Assembly: GCA_003021685.1 (NCBI GenBank)
Contig: PXRO01000006.1
Location: 6,377-70,376 of the forward strand
Length of the DNA: 64,000 bases
Origin: Halobacteriales archaeon QS_4_62_28
Lineage (GTDB): Archaea > Halobacteriota > Halobacteria > Halobacteriales > Haloarculaceae
Direction of reading: 5' to 3'
Part shown: piece after piece, positions 37,333 to 45,288 of the stretch
Layout: each line of letters begins with the position of its first letter
Position numbering within the stretch: the stretch's first letter is position 1
The notes under the pieces: model-generated
Databases searched by the model: none
Seen by the model: only the letters and a program-made list of their open reading frames with translations
Told to the model about the DNA's origin: nothing
Program-made: the position numbers and the translations under genes

Positions 37333-37632
37333 TTACCCGAGTCGGTTCGTGTCGATTTCGATACCCGGTGGAGTGACGATCAGGAACCCACGGAAGTGCA
37401 TCAGTTCGCCGCCCGATTCTTTGATGTCGCGCGCGAACCCGGCCGCAAGTTCGTTCAGGTCGCCCTCGACGTTCAGGACGAGGACGGCACCGCTCTGAAC
37501 GGTTTCGAGCCACTCGTCTGGGCCGGTTTCGCCGTCGAGCACGCCGAGGACGATTCGACTTCCTGTGCCCGGGTCGTCGTCGTTCATCTGGTCTTCGACT
37601 GCCTGCAGGTCCAGTCCCTCGAAATCAGTCAT
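37333..37632 (-). CDS. Conserved haloarchaeal small protein (SepF-like C-terminal pattern)
   Basis: IVLGVLDG, L-VEGDLNELA-GFA, LMHFRGFLIVTPPG. Confidence 0.65.
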   Translation of the reverse strand: MTDFEGLDLQAVEDQMNDDDPGTGSRIVLGVLDGETGPDEWLETVQSGAVLVLNVEGDLNELAAGFARDIKESGGELMHFRGFLIVTPPGIEIDTNRLG

Positions 37633-37884
37633 ACCACACCTCTCGTCGGCAAGCGAAAAAAATCCTCCTGTCTGCTCTCTTTTCGGTTGCACACTGTCCG
37701 TCGCCGACGGTACGCCGTATACGTGCTGCAACTGTCCGACGCCCCGGGGCCAGTGTACCTGTCGAGCGTATATCACTCTTTCTGGCGACCATGACATAAC
37801 GACTCACGAATCCGTTGCAGTCTGGTGGTTTCGGCTCAGTAGATTCCAGTCAGTGACGTATCACTCCCGAGATGCATGGATAGG

Positions 37885-37892
37885 TTTATATG
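37885..37892 (+). promoter_or_regulatory. TATA box of the leuA transcript
   Basis: TTTATATG at -34..-27 from ATG 37919, the same spacing as other leaderless genes in the window. Confidence 0.7.
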
Positions 37893-37918
37893 GTCGGAGT
37901 GTCCTGTTTCAGTCGAGT

Positions 37919-37996
37919 ATGTCCAACAACACAGAGGGCACGTCGGATTCTCCGGCGGATCGAGTTCTTCCAGGGTACACTGGATTCCACTTCTGA
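37919..37996 (+). other. Leaderless 25-codon ORF overlapping leuA out of frame (candidate true N-terminus via +1 frameshift)
   Basis: MSNNTEGTSDSPADRVLPGYTGFHF*; single Leu codon CTT at 37967. Confidence 0.6.
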
Positions 37997-39143
37997 GATC
38001 ACAGAAGCACGCATTTTCGATACGACGCTCCGTGACGGTGAGCAATCGCCACGGACGTCGTTTAGCTACGAAGACAAACGAGAGATCGCAGCGGTTCTGG
38101 ACGATATGGGCACCCACGTCATCGAGGCCGGGTTCCCGGTCAACTCCGATGCGGAGTTCGAGGCCGTCCGGGACATCGCCGAAGCCAGTTCGGTGACGGT
38201 CTGTGGGCTGGCACGCGTCGTCGAGACGGACATCGAGGCCGCGCTCGATTCGGGCGTGGACCTGGTACACACGTTCGTCTCGACCAGCGACATTCAGCTA
38301 CAGGACTCGATGCACGCGACCCGTGACGAAGCCTTACAAAGCGCCGTCGACGCCGTCGAGCGCATCACGGAAGCCGGTGTCGAGTGCATGTTCTCGCCGA
38401 TGGACGCCACGCGAACCGACGAGGCCTTCCTCGTCGACGTGATCGAGGCCGTCTCGGCGGCGGGTACCGACTGGATCAACATTCCGGACACCTGTGGTGT
38501 CGCGACGCCACGTCGGTTCTACGACCTCATCGAGATGGTCGACGCACAGACCGACGCTCGAATCGACGTGCACACGCACGACGACTTCGGGCTTGCCTCG
38601 GCCAACGCGATTTCCGGCTACGAGGCAGGCGCAGCACAGTCACAGGTCAGTGTCAACGGGATCGGCGAACGCGCCGGCAACGCGGCCTACGAAGAGGTCG
38701 TGATGGCACTGGAGAGCCTGTACGATGTCGATACGGGAATCGACGCCACGCGCATCACCGAACTCTCGGCGATCATCGAAGAGAAGTCGGGCATCGACGT
38801 GCCCGCGAACAAGCCGGTGGTGGGTGCGAACGCGTTCTCCCACGAGAGCGGGATCCACGCCGCGGGCGTCATCGAGAACTCCGATACGTTCGAGCCTGGA
38901 GTGATGACCCCCGAGATGGTCGGGGCAAAACGCCAACTCGTGCTGGGCAAGCACACTGGTCAACACTCCGTCCGTGAGCGACTCGTCGATGCGGGCTACG
39001 ATCCATCTGACGAACACGTCAGGGAGGTCACTCGCCGGGTCAAGGACTACGGGGCCGAGAAGAAGCGCGTCACGATGACGGAGCTACAGCGCTTCGCCGA
39101 CGACGTGGGCGTCCCAGAGGCCGAAGAGGAGGTCCGCGTCTAG
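37919..39143 (+). CDS. leuA: 2-isopropylmalate synthase family (LeuA); start problematic, see findings
   Basis: IFDTTLRDGEQ, IEAGFP, INIPDTCG, HTHDDFG, GIGERAGN, HESGIH, LGKHTG; lacks the C-terminal regulatory domain of long LeuA; coding frame is that of 37890..39143. Confidence 0.9.
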
Positions 39144-39395: not shown

Positions 39396-39518
39396 CCCCC
39401 ACTACATCTACTTCAACGACCGTCGGACCGGTTTTCCAGTACACAGCAGAGATCACAGCAATGCAACAACACACCACAGCAACACCGTATCGAGCACACG
39501 AGTATCGGGGTGAGACCG

Positions 39519-41279
39519 ATGAGTGAACGCGCGTCGGTCCAGCAGGACGACCAAGCAGAGAGCGAGGCGACCGAAGCCCAGGAACCCGTCACGACGGGTG
39601 CCCAGTCAGTGATCCGTGCATTGGAAAACGCGGGTGCCGAATACGTCTTCGGCGTTCAGGGCGGGGCCATCATGCCCGTCTACGACGCGCTGTACGATTC
39701 TGACATCGGCCACGTGACCATGGCCCACGAGCAGGGGGCCTCCCACGCTGCTGACGCCTACGGCATCGTCTCGGGCGAACCGGGCGTCTGTTTTGCAACC
39801 TCGGGACCGGGGGCGACCAACCTCGTCACCGGCCTCGCAGACGCGAACATGGACTCGGATCCGGTCATCGCCCTGACCGGCCAGGTCCCGACCGACTTCG
39901 TCGGGAACGACGCCTTCCAGGAGACGGACACGGTCGGCGTCACGCAGCCAGTCACCAAGCACAGTTACTTCGCCGACGATGCCGACACCGTCGGCGACGA
40001 AGTCGGTGAGGCCTGGGCACTCGCAAACGAGGGTCGCCAGGGCCCGACGCTGGTCGACCTGCCCAAGGACGTTACCAAGGGAGAGACCGATGTCGAACCG
40101 AGCGGACCAGAGAAACCCGACACCTACGACGTTCCCGAGGAGGCCGACGACGAGAACGTCCAGGAAGCCGCCGACGCACTGGCAGCTGCCGAGAAGCCCG
40201 TGATGCTCGCGGGCGGCGGCGTCATCAAGGCAAACGCCTCGGACGCGCTCCGTGACTTCGCCTTCGAGTACGAGATTCCGGTCATCACGACGATGCCCGG
40301 CATCGGCTGTTTCCCGGAAGATCACGAACTCTCTCTGGAGTGGGCGGGCATGCACGGCACCGGCTACGCCAACATGGCAATTACGAACACCGACTGCATG
40401 CTCGCAATCGGGACCCGCTTCGACGACCGCCTGACCGGCGGCGTCGATACCTTCGCGCCCGACGCAGACATCATCCACGTCGACATCGACCCGGCCGAGA
40501 TCAGCAAGAACGTTCACGCCGACTACCCGCTGATCGGGGACGCGCGAGACACGCTCCGGCAACTGTACGACGCGATGCCGGCCGCACCCGACGCTGACGG
40601 GTGGCGTACACAGGTCCAGAAGTGGAAAGCAGAGTACCCGATGGACTACTCGACGCCCGACGACGAACCGCTCAAGCCCCAGTACGTCGTCGAGCGGTTC
40701 AGTGATGTCACACCCGACGATACGATTGTCTGTACGGGCGTTGGCCAGCACCAGATGTGGGCCTCCCAGTTCTGGGAGTACACCGAACCCCGCACCTGGG
40801 TCTCCAGTCACGGACTGGGGACGATGGGCTATGGCGCACCGGCAGCAATCGGCGCGAAACTCGCTGCACCGGATCAGGAAGTCGTCTGTTTCGACGGCGA
40901 CGGCTCGTTCCTGATGACGGTCCAGGAACTCTCGGTCGCGGTCCGGGAGAACCTCGACATCACCTACGTCATCCTGAACAACGAAGCAGTCGGGATGGTC
41001 CGACAGTGGCAGGACGCCTTCCACGAGGGGCGTCGGATGGCCTCCGAGTATCCCTGGATTCCGGCGTTCGACAAACTCGCCGAGGCCTTTGGCGCTCGCG
41101 GGTTCCGCCTGGAAGACTACGACAACGTCGAGGAGACCATTCAGGCCGCGCGCGAGTACGACGGCCCCTCGGTGATCGACGCGATCATCGACCCCGCGGA
41201 GAACGTCTACCCGATGGTTCCGAGTGGCGGCGACAACGGACTGTTCGCGCTGAGTGAGCAACATCTGGAGCAACTATGA
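39519..41279 (+). CDS. ilvB: Acetolactate synthase large subunit
   Basis: HEQGASHAAD, TSGPGATN, GMHG, RFDDR, GQHQMW, GDGSF TPP motif; SD GGGGTGA. Confidence 0.95.
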   Translation: MSERASVQQDDQAESEATEAQEPVTTGAQSVIRALENAGAEYVFGVQGGAIMPVYDALYDSDIGHVTMAHEQGASHAADAYGIVSGEPGVCFATSGPGATNLVTGLADANMDSDPVIALTGQVPTDFVGNDAFQETDTVGVTQPVTKHSYFADDADTVGDEVGEAWALANEGRQGPTLVDLPKDVTKGETDVEPSGPEKPDTYDVPEEADDENVQEAADALAAAEKPVMLAGGGVIKANASDALRDFAFEYEIPVITTMPGIGCFPEDHELSLEWAGMHGTGYANMAITNTDCMLAIGTRFDDRLTGGVDTFAPDADIIHVDIDPAEISKNVHADYPLIGDARDTLRQLYDAMPAAPDADGWRTQVQKWKAEYPMDYSTPDDEPLKPQYVVERFSDVTPDDTIVCTGVGQHQMWASQFWEYTEPRTWVSSHGLGTMGYGAPAAIGAKLAAPDQEVVCFDGDGSFLMTVQELSVAVRENLDITYVILNNEAVGMVRQWQDAFHEGRRMASEYPWIPAFDKLAEAFGARGFRLEDYDNVEETIQAAREYDGPSVIDAIIDPAENVYPMVPSGGDNGLFALSEQHLEQL

Positions 41280-41875
41280 CCGGAGAAATGCCCGGACCGG
41301 CCCCGGACGAGCGAATGCGACCGGCGGGGCGGCGCAACACCCAGGGTATTCGCATCGATCCAGAAGCGGAGGTCACGCACGAGCCACGACAGGCCGTGCT
41401 CTCCGCGCTGGTGGAACACGAACCGGGCGTCCTCGCGGAAGTGTCCGGGCTGTTCAGTCGCCGCCAGTTCAACATCGAGAGCCTGACTGTCGGTCCGACG
41501 GAGGACGACGACGTGGCCCGCATGACCATCGTCATCGAGGAACCACAGCCCGGTATCGAGCAGGCAAAAAAGCAACTGCAGAAGCTCGTGCCGACGATTT
41601 CGGTGACGGAACTCGCACCGGAAACGACCCGTCGAGAACTCGCGCTGATCAAGGTCAGCGGCGAGAAACCCGACGACGTGAACGCCGTGGCGGAGATGTA
41701 TGGCGGTCAGGCGGTCGACGTGACCGCCGACTCCGTGACCGTCGAGTTGACCGGGAGCCAGCAGAAAATCGACGCCGCAGTCGAAGCGTTCGACCAGTTC
41801 GACGTGCACGAAGTCGTCCGGACTGGAACCGCAGCACTTGAGAGAGGGGGCCACACACTGGAAAACGATGACTGA
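41276..41875 (+). CDS. ilvN: Acetolactate synthase small (ACT) subunit
   Basis: [34 protein letters not shown]. Confidence 0.95.
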
Positions 41876-42893
41876 CGAATTTACCACGGACGTACACTAC
41901 GACGACGACGTCGACGAATCGTACATCGAGGACAGGACAGTTGCAGTCCTGGGTTACGGCAGCCAGGGCCACGCACAGGCCCAGAACCTCGACGACAGCG
42001 GTGTCGACGTTGTCGTGGGCCTCCGCAACTCCTCCTCCTCGCGGGCCGCCGCCGAGGAAGACGGACTGCGCGTCGCGACGCCGGCAAGCGCGGCCGCGGA
42101 AGCCGACATCATCGTGATGCTGGTTCCGGACACGGTCCAGCCCGCAGTGTACGACGCCATCGAGGACGGTCTGGACGCCGGTGACACGCTCCAGTTCGCC
42201 CACGGCTTCAACATCCACTACGGCCAGATCGAACCGTCCGAGGACGTGGACGTGACGATGGTCGCGCCGAAGTCGCCGGGCCATCTGGTCCGACGAACCT
42301 ACGAGCGCGGCGAGGGAACCCCCGGTCTGATCGCCGTCGAGCAGGACGCAACCGGCGACGCGCGCCAGGAAGCACTGGCCTACGCAAAAGCAGTCGGCTG
42401 TACGCGAGCTGGTGTCATCGAGACGACCTTTCAGGAAGAGGTCGAGACGGATCTGTTCGGCGAGCAGGCCGTGCTGTGTGGCGGCGTCACCGAGATGGTC
42501 AAGGTCGGCTTCGAGACGCTCGTCGATGCGGGTTACTCCCCCGAGATGGCCTACTTCGAGTGCCTGAACGAGCTCAAACTCATCGTCGATCTGATGTACG
42601 AAGGCGGCCACATGGAGATGTGGAACTCCGTCTCCGACACCGCCGAGTACGGTGGGCTGACCCGCGGTGAGGAAGTCATCGACCGCGAGGGCATGGAAAC
42701 GATTCTCGAAGCGGTCCAGAACGGCGAGTTCGCTCGCGAATGGATCGCCGAGAACCAGGCGAATCGACCGGCCTACAAGCAGTATCGAGGGGCCGAACAG
42801 GACCACGAAATCGAGCGAGTCGGCGCTCGCCTGCGCGAACTGTTCGCGTGGGACGAGGCGGCCGACAAACACGAAGCACCAGCAGACGATTGA
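41868..42893 (+). CDS. ilvC: Ketol-acid reductoisomerase
   Basis: [46 protein letters not shown]. Confidence 0.95.
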
Positions 42894-42894
42894 C

Positions 42895-43134
42895 ATGAGC
42901 AAAATGAGCGACGTGGACCACACACATCCACACACGGACGAACCGTTCGGCGCTGCCTTCCGTCGCGGCCCGGCAGTGGCAGCCGACGGCGGGAAGCGAG
43001 ACGACGGATCACAGGCAGAGAACGACGAACAAACGAACGACGAGACGATGGAAGACGTCGACCACGAGTCCCCGAGTGAAGGCGCTGACCGCGCTTTCGA
43101 GCGGGGCACAGAGGGACGCACGGATTCAGTATGA
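42895..43134 (+). CDS. Small acidic hypothetical protein within the ilv/leu operon (79 aa)
   Basis: Two similar halves M-DVDH..P...F-RG; stop overlaps leuC ATG. Confidence 0.65.
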
Positions 43135-44552
43135 GTTCAGGAACGCTGTACGACAAGGTCTGGGATCGCCACAAGGTGACGACCCTGCCCAACGGGCAGG
43201 ATCAGTTGTTCGTTGGCCTCCACCTCATCCACGAGGTCACGAGTCCCCAGGCCTTCGGGATGCTCAAAGAGCGCGGCCTCGACGTCGCGCGCCCGGACCT
43301 GACCCACGCGACGGTCGACCACATCGTCCCGACGGCCAACCAGGACCGGCCATACGCAGACGACGCGGCCGAGACCATGATGGCCGAACTCGAAGAGAAC
43401 GTCCGTGACGCCGGCATCCAGTTCTCCGACCCGACGACGGGCGACCAGGGAATCGTCCACGTCATCGGGCCGGAGCAGGGAATCACCCAACCCGGCAAAA
43501 CGATCGTCTGTGGTGACAGCCACACCTCGACCCACGGTGCCTTCGGCGCGCTGGCCTTCGGGATCGGGACCAGCCAGATCCGGGACGTGCTGGCGACCCA
43601 GACCATCGCGATGGAAAAGCAGCAGGTCCGGAAAATCGAGGTCGACGGTGAACTCGGCGAGGGCGTCGAGGCGAAAGACATCATCCTCGAAATCATCCGC
43701 CGACTGGGGACCGAGGGCGGCGTCGGCTACGTCTACGAGTACGCCGGCGAGGCCATCGAGGACCTCGGCATGGAAGGACGGATGTCGATCTGTAACATGT
43801 CCATCGAGGGCGGCGCTCGCGCGGGCTACGTCAACCCCGACGAGACCACCTACGAGTGGCTGGCCGAGACCGACTACTTCCGGGACCGTCCCGAGAAATT
43901 CGACGACCTCAAGCCCTACTGGGACTCGATCCGCAGCGACGAGGACGCCGAGTACGACGATATCGTCAGGATCGACGCCAGCGAACTCGACCCGGTCGTG
44001 ACCTGGGGGACCACCCCCGGGCAGGGCATCGGTATCGACGATCCGATTCCAGCGCCCGAAGCACTGGACGAGGACAAGCAAGACACCGCCCGACGTGCTC
44101 AGGAACACATGCGCGTCGAACCCGGCGAGACGATGAACGGCTACGACATCGACGTGGCGTTCCTGGGGTCCTGTACCAACGCGCGACTGCCCGACCTCCG
44201 TCGGGCCGCCCGTATCGTCAAGGGTCGCGAAGTCCACGACGACGTGCGTGCGATGGTCGTTCCCGGTAGCCAGCGCGTCCAGAAGGCCGCCAAAGCGGAA
44301 GGTCTGAAGGACATCTTCGAAGCGGCCGGCTTCGACTGGCGCAACGCTGGCTGTTCGATGTGCCTGGGGATGAACGAAGACCAGCTAGAGGGTGAGGAGG
44401 CGTGTGCCTCCTCCTCGAACCGGAACTTCGTCGGCCGCCAGGGCAGCAAGGACGGCCGCACAGTCCTGATGAACCCGCGGATGGTCGCCGCAGCGGCGAT
44501 CACCGGCGAAGTCTCTGACGTGCGCGAACTGAAGGAGGTGAATCTGGCGTGA
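43131..44552 (+). CDS. leuC: 3-isopropylmalate dehydratase large subunit
   Basis: [38 protein letters not shown]. Confidence 0.97.
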
Positions 44553-44643
44553 GCGAGACGCGACGCGTCTCGGAAACGCGAGCGGGCCAGGCCCGCAAGC
44601 AGCACGTGCGATCACGCCGGTGCAATACGTCGGGGGTGGTCGC

Positions 44644-45288
44644 ATGACTGACGCGACAGAAGACATCCCGGAAGTCGACTACGTCTCCGGGACCGGTGTG
44701 CCGATCCGGGGCAACGACATCGACACCGACCAGATCATCCCGGCGCGGTTCATGAAGGTCGTTACCTTCGACGGCCTGGGTGAGTTCGCCTTCTTCGACC
44801 TGCGCTTCGATGACGACGACAACCAGAAGGACCACCCCTTCAACGAAGAGCGATTTCAGGACGCGAACGTCGTGGTGGTCAACAACAACTTCGGCTGTGG
44901 CTCGTCGCGCGAGCACGCTCCCCAGGCGCTCATGCGCTGGGGCATCGACGCCATCATCGGCGAGGGCTTCGCCGAGATTTTCGCCGGCAACTGCCTGGCA
45001 CTCGGCATCCCGACTGTCACCGCCGACCACGAGACGATCAACGCGCTCCAGCAGTGGGTCGACGACAACCCGAACGAGGAAATCGAGGTCGATGTCGAGA
45101 CCGAGACGGTCAGCTACGGCGGCAACGAGATCGGTGTCAGCGTCGACAACGCACAGCGCCAGGCCCTCGTCGAAGGTATCTGGGACACGACGGCACTGAT
45201 GAAGTCGAACAGGAACGCGATTGCCGAGACGGCCGCGTCGGTGCCGTACGTGGAGCAGACCCGTGCGGAGTTCGAGACGGACGACTGA
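44644..45288 (+). CDS. leuD: 3-isopropylmalate dehydratase small subunit
   Basis: DIDTDQIIPARF, NFGCGSSREHAP, FAEIF-GN. Confidence 0.95.
   Translation: MTDATEDIPEVDYVSGTGVPIRGNDIDTDQIIPARFMKVVTFDGLGEFAFFDLRFDDDDNQKDHPFNEERFQDANVVVVNNNFGCGSSREHAPQALMRWGIDAIIGEGFAEIFAGNCLALGIPTVTADHETINALQQWVDDNPNEEIEVDVETETVSYGGNEIGVSVDNAQRQALVEGIWDTTALMKSNRNAIAETAASVPYVEQTRAEFETDD

Follow-up and report, generated by a model that had tools for sequence, protein, structure and literature searches.

We found that the leuA gene in the window (the whole 64,000-nucleotide stretch of haloarchaeal DNA that was analysed) has no usable start codon of its own and overlaps a short upstream reading frame (uORF), a layout that is a real and widely conserved feature of haloarchaeal leuA. 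When the three readings that invoke a +1 ribosomal frameshift are taken together, such a shift is very likely required for LeuA to be made. Comparison of orthologous sequences makes it probable that the shift senses leucine, with a P-site GTT codon slipping while an A-site CTT codon waits for its tRNA, and that this controls LeuA synthesis. A little less firmly, we consider it likely that a single ancient +1 cassette is shared by haloarchaea and many methanogen-type relatives and comprises a stimulator, a slippery P codon and an exchangeable A codon, which is Leu in leuA and Ile in cimA.

Layout of the leuA locus and identity of the enzyme

The features of the locus are collected in Table 1. 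Between 37890 and 38110 the only ATG, GTG or TTG codons in the leuA frame are ATG 37890, GTG 37899 and ATG 38106, and the catalytic motif DTTLRDGEQ lies upstream of the last of these. In the window genome the frame of the enzyme stays open from 37890 onward. The ORF that begins at ATG 37919 has 25 codons, ends with the stop codon at 37994–37996 and contains a single Leu codon, CTT 37967. When the window sequence was re-checked, all coordinates that an earlier sequence-only reading had given for the leuA 5′ end were correct. The codons CTT, GTT and CGA are rare in the window genome, where they make up 5.6%, 9.0% and 15.6% of the codons for their amino acids, and a tRNA-Leu(GAG) is present.

Table 1. 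Features of the leuA locus, in window coordinates
Feature	Position	Strand	Comment
TATA-like box TTTATA	37885..37890	+	34 nt 5′ of the uORF ATG; putative function
uORF, 25 codons, −1 frame relative to the enzyme	37919..37996	+	Predicted source of LeuA residues 1–16
5′ hairpin, 7-bp stem	37941..37957	+	3 nt gap to the E-site codon; predicted +1 stimulator
GATC, complementary to the 16S rRNA 3′ tail GAUC	37958..37961	+	Possible internal SD-like contact; reaches the first E-site base
Predicted E-site codon CGA (Arg)	37961..37963	+	Arg in 145/145 loci in frame 0 (CGA/CGG)
Predicted slipping P-site codon GTT (Val)	37964..37966	+	+1 codon beneath is TTC
Predicted sensed (hungry) A-site codon CTT (Leu)	37967..37969	+	Leu in 146/146 haloarchaeal loci
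LeuA-type catalytic ORF, +1 frame, 391 codons after the shift	37968..39143	+	Predicted fusion of 407 aa; without the allosteric domain
3′ hairpin of the sequence-only reading	37969..37984	+	Intact in 52/146 loci; probably incidental
ilvB, ilvN, ilvC, leuC, leuD (pathway context)	39510..45288	+	ORFs and family matches

The names LeuA and CimA were assigned from homology, phylogeny and gene context. A family search placed only the HMGL-like and HCS_D2 domains in the window protein. The allosteric domain PF08502, which marks the long form, was absent from it and present in L151, L242, L243, L245 and L260. The top NCBIfam match was 2-isopropylmalate synthase with 462 bits, short of the cut-off of 517, and the protein scored under all curated NCBIfam LeuA cut-offs; the gene was recognised as leuA by its HMGL-like catalytic domain within a leu/ilv cluster. 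Close relatives of the protein include that of Halomicrobium katesii (93% identity). In a tree of 38 proteins, haloarchaeal leuA joined a methanogen-type group 1 with support 100/98, and the cimA-like paralogue joined group 2 with support 100/99. The Haloferax protein HVO_1510 has been listed as LeuA from its 47% identity to MJ1195 (PMC8305020). The sequence-only reading had pointed to the missing Leu-binding domain; PF08502 is indeed absent from the window protein, but L242, L245 and L260 carry it together with the same layout, so its loss is not the reason for the switch. One long-form gene, from the same order (L214 / L260 in genome G003), combines the allosteric domain with the methanogen-like site CGT TTT TTG G and branches in the tree beside the short haloarchaeal LeuA group.

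Start codons and uORF across haloarchaeal leuA

A total of 160 haloarchaeal leuA loci were gathered, and 146 remained after one that was too short and 13 exact duplicates had been dropped. These loci are kin and not independent, so the counts are descriptive and overstate the independent support. An ATG in the −1 frame was found in 146/146 loci, 39–72 nt 5′ of the shift site and always at a distance that is a multiple of 3, and 129/146 had no canonical in-frame start between this uATG and DTTLRDGEQ. The sequence-only reading had claimed that a +1 shift is needed from the leaderless-positioned ATG and had looked to a conserved ATG lying out of frame and a missing in-frame start across Halobacteria; both counts back that claim. 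In 42/146 loci the enzyme frame contains a stop codon at the uATG or past it, and sporadic in-frame ATG, GTG or TTG codons fell within the uORF in 13/146 and past the site in 5/146. The best TATA-like hexamer began 33–35 nt before the uATG in 118/146, and a hexamer at that distance from an ATG is the geometry of a leaderless mRNA.

The same-genus loci L002 and L003 have the same spacing as the window, no in-frame start and an in-frame stop within the uORF. As general explanations, this excludes both a 1-bp assembly error, which had been named as something that could undo the argument, and the use of ATG 37890. The uORF contained no further Leu codon 5′ of the site in 140/145 loci, and its stop codon shifted in position, lying 7–12 codons past the P codon.

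Position of the frame change

The two frames were compared over 145 loci, leaving out the long-form gene L214. Over 37961–37969, frame 0 encodes Arg-Val-Leu in all 145 loci with synonymous changes only, and the +1 frame over the same bases shows non-synonymous changes (E/G 5, F/L 1, F/S 1), preceded one codon earlier by I/V/N. From the third +1 codon past the site onward the pattern is reversed, with Gly and Thr in 145/145, each written with four synonymous codons, while frame 0 varies. This reversal places the switch between the Leu codon and about 37974. The P codon was GTT in 145/146 haloarchaeal loci and the A codon was always a Leu codon (CTT 144, CTC 1, TTG 1; n=146). Leu was encoded as CTT-C in 143/146, and the 0-frame codon after it was any of seven, so no fixed slow A-site codon stands behind CTT. 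L136 is an exception in that it has TTG (Leu) as its +1 A codon.

Among 59 methanogen-type leuA genes the P codon was always NTT (TTT 39, CTT 16, GTT 4) and was followed by a pyrimidine in all of them, and the A codon was TTA in 27, CTT in 23 and CTA in 9. Re-pairing in the +1 frame is full for TTT and CTT, and two of three pairs are kept for GTT-C, TTT-A and GAA-A. The sequence-only reading had taken CUU for the slipping P-site codon, and the 36 orthologues with TTA or CTA, which are unable to re-pair in +1, speak against this. Together with the variable codon after Leu and a preceding codon that is NTT or GAA, with two equal end bases, they are most simply read as slippage of the preceding codon in the P site. 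On these comparisons the slipping codon is most likely GTT, and Leu is most likely the sensed A-site codon. The most likely junction is then R-V|F-Q-G, as in ...DRVFQGTLDST, the second of two peptides that had been offered; the first, ...DRVLQGTLDST, is disfavoured. The slip from GUU to UUC drops the first-position pair and is weaker than the CUU to UUU slip of prfB.

Orthologues outside the haloarchaea and the Leu/Ile mirror

The non-haloarchaeal sample was drawn from other classes of the phylum and comprised 78 group-1 and 69 group-2 non-redundant loci, reduced from 90 and 74 by removing one that was too short and otherwise duplicates. Five of the genomes were tested for mcrA; it was found in four, and three of these have the layout. 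To find the site without reference to the A codon, we scored loci with a profile of the 12 nt that end with the P codon and counted those that reached a score of at least 6 and had a uORF start. The A codon found in this way was Leu in 59/59 group-1 leuA genes and Ile in 55/56 group-2 cimA genes (ATT 52, ATC 3). No position in the other two frames reached the profile threshold in any locus, and of six aksA-like control genes none reached it and all had ordinary in-frame starts.

Eight further group-1 loci, all with Leu, fell short of the threshold; two group-2 loci had Ile yet no uORF start was found in them. The layout was absent in 11/78 group-1 and 11/69 group-2 loci. L346, in group 2, had a good profile score but TAT (Tyr) at the A codon and no uORF start. 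In L343, L346, L347, L348 and L350, all cimA-like, AGG GAT/AAT is kept, the sequence beyond differs and Ile is not in register; these sites are possibly altered or lost. The cimA-like gene L379 (G296) has CTT (Leu) at the predicted A site, which could be a natural change of the sensed amino acid or reflect a different role of the enzyme. In G293, G296, G299, G304, G313 and G316, leuA and cimA are arranged head to head with about 330 bases between them.

Of the sampled loci, 24 in group 1 and 27 in group 2 have an enzyme frame that closes within 35 nt on the upstream side, with no canonical start before the motif. In group 1 the +1 Phe codon beneath the P site is TTC in 23/23 loci where TTT would turn the A codon into Phe (next +1 codon TT-), and TTT, giving the A codon TTA, in 27/36 loci where the next +1 codon begins with TA. 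Group 2 keeps TTA in 55/56 loci and never has TTG, though TTG is equally common in these genes. The Leu/Ile mirror is thus not a by-product of the +1 protein. It also backs, on comparative grounds, the earlier suggestion that LeuA synthesis may be gated by an amino acid.

The only other close paralogue in the window genome is the cimA-like gene on contig C37, with its uATG at 66486. At this locus (G000:C37:66486-66560; L151:1487-1561, +) a uORF stands in the −1 frame, the hairpin keeps the register seen in leuA, and the site reads CGT-GAA-ATT-C. The A codon of haloarchaeal cimA was ATT (Ile) in 29/30 loci, 24 times after GAA and five times after TTT; the exception, L174, has no shift site. Many haloarchaeal cimA genes have an in-frame GTG or TTG downstream, so the missing start is less clear-cut than in leuA. 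Disruption of HVO_0644, the Haloferax paralogue, led to isoleucine auxotrophy (PMC8305020). L162, L170, L173, L178 and L181 form a second haloarchaeal cimA class with a very short uORF and the site CGN TTT ATT C, which resembles the methanogen-type sites.

Candidate stimulators

A joint gapless alignment of the 5′ hairpin reached only 72% pairing, as it mixed two loop lengths, and we afterwards divided the alignment by loop length. The long loop has three more bases, so the uORF frame is kept. In the short-loop set (n=46) 94.4% of cells were paired, with three pairs showing double changes, and in the long-loop set (n=26) 93.4% were paired, with five pairs changed on both sides. The covariation score was matched by 0/500 shuffles in either set, although relatedness inflates such scores. 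The same hairpin register was found in 24 cimA loci. By folding energy alone the window hairpin was not significant (z −1.36); over the 146 haloarchaeal loci the median z was −1.63, with 50/146 below −2, and in the methanogen-type loci (median z 0.14 and −0.3) no sign of a hairpin emerged. A search of 37700–38200 with Rfam covariance models returned one chance-level match (E 0.97), away from the site. The motif GAGG at window position 37934–37937, immediately 5′ of the hairpin, hardly varies among the short-loop leuA sites; in cimA, GAGGATAGAG stands 5′ of the hairpin.

The sequence-only reading had drawn attention to a different structure, the 3′ hairpin TCCAG-GGTACA-CTGGA. It can form (−7.3 kcal/mol, z −1.94), but it was rejected as a stimulator since it is intact in only 52/146 orthologous loci, and the hairpin that is conserved lies 5′ of the site. 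In published work, a hairpin adjoining the E site stimulates +1 shifting and downstream structure attenuates it, and an upstream hairpin boosts the +1 shift in vitro where the hungry codon is one for Cys (PMC6321510, section 2.7 for the latter).

The bases leading into the E codon, which are complementary to the 16S tail, are GATC in 92 and GGTC in 47 of the 146 haloarchaeal loci, and in methanogen-type loci an SD-like AGG-GAT precedes the E codon. In relatives, the tail sequence was confirmed to be the 3′ end of 16S rRNA. The computed energy of a duplex with this tail was lowest at −12..−3, with means of −8.6 kcal/mol for methanogen-type leuA and −6.5 kcal/mol for cimA; the haloarchaeal mean was −6.4 at −12..−3 compared with −5.5 kcal/mol at another offset. 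A possible SD-like contact thus appears weak in haloarchaea and stronger in the methanogen-type loci.

RNA, transcription start and peptide data

RNA reads were taken from a relative, the organism of genome G028, in four runs from at most two studies, covering 6–26% of each run. Neither the leuA site, with about 50 sense reads, nor the cimA site, with about 320, had an indel or joint listed over it in these reads. The sense depth of leuA dropped to 2–4 reads upstream of the ATG. Coverage of cimA was strong 5′ of the uATG, so cimA is not simply leaderless in this organism. At L175:1900-2100 RNA coverage in the opposite direction was strong across the 5′ portion of the cimA coding sequence, peaked at about 285 in run X22 and dropped close to the shift site; it is possibly an antisense RNA.

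For Haloferax, the transcription start was mapped 2–4 nt downstream of the ATG, with positional uncertainty cited by the authors (PMC8305020). If the mapping is accurate, this speaks against the model. Peptides of HVO_1510 were detected upstream of Met-93 (PMC8305020, supplement), and the in-frame peptide 43-61, inside which the site lies, was missing although coverage was high (PMC8305020). Its absence fits a shift inside that peptide.

Proposed mechanism and alternatives

In the mechanism that we propose, ribosomes would initiate at ATG 37919, whose leaderless position is observed, and read 16 codons. As GTT enters the P site, the hairpin may refold behind the E site, or GATC may pair with the 16S tail, or both, favouring a forward slip; the hairpin is seen to be conserved, and E. 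coli work in vitro suggests its stimulating function. With plentiful Leu-tRNA, CTT would be decoded and translation would terminate at 37994, giving a 25-residue peptide. With scarce Leu-tRNA, peptidyl-tRNA-Val would slip from GUU to UUC with two of its three base pairs intact. UUC would then be read by tRNA-Phe, and the predicted product is an enzyme of 407 residues, 16 from the uORF and 391 from TTC 37968 onward, with the junction R-V|F-Q-G-T-L. The same switch, with an isoleucine codon, is predicted for the cimA paralogue. A slip in the P site with Leu or Ile in the A site gives the right sign, since less charged tRNA would yield more enzyme.

An unlikely, though the least unlikely, alternative is that LeuA begins at an in-frame non-AUG codon and that the uORF regulates it merely by stalling at the Leu codon. 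The candidate starts would be the CTG 8 nt before the uATG, ATC 37959, CTG 37980, or ATC 37998 by re-initiation. An in-frame CTG has been offered for Haloferax (PMC8305020), the P−5 codon is ATC or ATT in 58/59 methanogen-type leuA genes, and an Ile codon follows the uORF stop in the window. On the other side, the CTG at −8 is present in 9/146 loci and that at the 37980 position in 62/146, the haloarchaeal P−5 codon is GTC in 47/146 and AAC in 6/146, and the Ile before the motif is replaced by TTC or GTN in 21/145, while the uORF stop moves as described above. Protein-type selection on the +1 residues G-T-L begins directly after the site, and the undetected peptide 43-61 (PMC8305020) also argues against an in-frame start. 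It is improbable, and more so than a non-AUG start, that the shift takes place with CUU in the P site and tRNA-Leu(GAG) re-pairing on UUC, to give R-V-L|Q-G. CTT-C is nearly universal in haloarchaea, the tRNA is present, and prfB and Ty1 are known to have CUU in the P site (PMC6321510, PMC5009743); yet most methanogen-type orthologues have a Leu codon that is unable to re-pair, haloarchaea also use CTC and TTG, the 0-frame codon behind it varies, and both the invariant NTT or GAA codon before it and the Leu/Ile mirror would be left unexplained.

Equally improbable is a real frameshift that works at a fixed ratio and damps LeuA synthesis without responding to leucine. The rarity of CTT, GTT and CGA means that the site could always be slow, but nothing in a fixed ratio would make leuA hold on to Leu, and cimA to Ile, through changes of synonymous codon when the 12 nt before them are nearly identical. 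Correction of the frame at the RNA level is very improbable, whether through slippage of the polymerase, through editing or through the hairpin being spliced out as a 16-nt intron. A run of six T is common in methanogen-type sites, and the hairpin plus one base amounts to 3n+1 nt; against this, the haloarchaeal site is without a homopolymer run, and no indel or joint was listed in the four runs of the G028 organism, which is not known to have been starved of leucine and in which leuA depth was low. The hairpin was likewise rejected as an archaeal intron, as no spliced joints were listed in these runs at that low leuA depth. Scarcely credible is an assembly error or ordinary translation from ATG 37890 or GTG 37899. 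The open enzyme frame in the window genome would permit such translation, but the spacing is identical in 146/146 loci, L002 and L003 are without either codon and have an in-frame stop, and both codons lie in or just past the TATA-like box.

Relation to known systems

The leuA site is likely a prfB-like +1 frameshift serving as a hungry-codon amino-acid sensor. As in prfB, a short 0-frame ORF overlaps a main +1 ORF that has no start. The methanogen-type site, AGG-GAT / CGT / TTT / TTA-C, stands in the same register as the prfB site. Probably shared with prfB are also a slippery P-site codon and a slow A site as the sensor, and possibly an SD-like duplex before the E-site codon (PMC6321510, PMC5009743); prfB itself has UAU in the E site and CUUUGA (PMC6321510). 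The leuA system differs in that the A site holds a sense codon for the end product of the pathway and not the stop codon, read by the gene's own product, that defines prfB. Its A codon is Leu or Ile, with the uORF stop following 7–12 codons past the P codon, and haloarchaea add the covarying 5′ hairpin. Nor does leuA follow the CUU-AGG-C pattern of Ty1, because the following codon is variable and CUU is replaced by TTA or CTA in 36/59 orthologues.

The bacterial leu/ilv attenuators use a leader ORF with the cognate codon to report the aminoacyl-tRNA level to biosynthetic genes; they depend on several such codons and on RNA switching ahead of a gene that has its own start. A leuL-like leader is not what was found at leuA, with its one Leu codon (140/145) and no separate start (129/146). 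Antizyme is similar in having a metabolite-responsive +1 shift that acts as both sensor and effector in a feedback loop (PMC5009743). In the E. coli hungry-codon cases, too, limitation of A-site aminoacyl-tRNA promotes the shift and an upstream hairpin stimulates +1 shifting (PMC5009743, PMC6321510), but those are experimental or error events, and the 2016 review, in the parts that concern such shifts, states that no natural starvation-specific hungry-codon trans-frame protein was known (PMC5009743).

For leuA itself, Pfeiffer and Dyall-Smith (2021) treated Haloferax volcanii leuA2 (HVO_1510) as an open annotation issue (PMC8305020). The gene belongs to the same orthologue set and has the missing start and the conserved out-of-frame ATG (PMC8305020). 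They mentioned ribosomal slippage, speculated that translation occurs only under leucine shortage, and left undecided between a CTG start and slippage (PMC8305020). The sequence-only reading knew of no description of such a mechanism for archaeal leucine biosynthesis. The idea of a regulatory +1 frameshift at leuA was anticipated as this 2021 speculation and is now directly testable; in the passages of PMC8305020 that deal with the gene, neither a shift site nor a stimulator or sensed codon is named, nor is a mirror in cimA or any methanogen orthologue mentioned. A search of the open-licence literature, with subscription papers outside its scope, turned up no paper that deals with the site, its stimulator, the mirror in cimA or an experimental test. 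A 2021 review of archaeal recoding names the −1 fucosidase, cases from viruses and one suggested for magnesium chelatase; it contains no word starting with 'leu' (PMC8211752). A case of this kind is absent from the relevant passages of that review and of the 2016 one (PMC8211752, PMC5009743). The main text of Gelsinger 2020 (PMC7261190) contains no mention of frameshift, leuA, HVO_1510 or HVO_0644.

If the mechanism holds, the cassette would be the first hungry-codon frameshift of natural origin to turn on a biosynthetic enzyme, would form a counterpart to attenuation in archaea, and would fill gaps in both recoding reviews (PMC8211752, PMC5009743). It would explain how leucine and isoleucine synthesis are coupled to tRNA charging in these archaea and settle the published annotation problem, and it would mean that many genomes have incorrect N-termini for leuA and cimA. 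The predicted junction is an exact peptide that can be searched for in existing proteome data. The cassette would also offer a compact, codon-programmable amino-acid sensor for archaeal genetics.

Other observations in the window genome

A scan of the whole window genome for leuA-like layouts, with a crude filter that accepted ATG only, gave 23 candidates, among which only leuA and cimA combined a full TATA score with a hairpin of about −11 kcal/mol. Directly upstream of the leuA promoter lies a divergent gene for a DUF5779 (PF19091) protein, at window position 37336-37632 on the minus strand.
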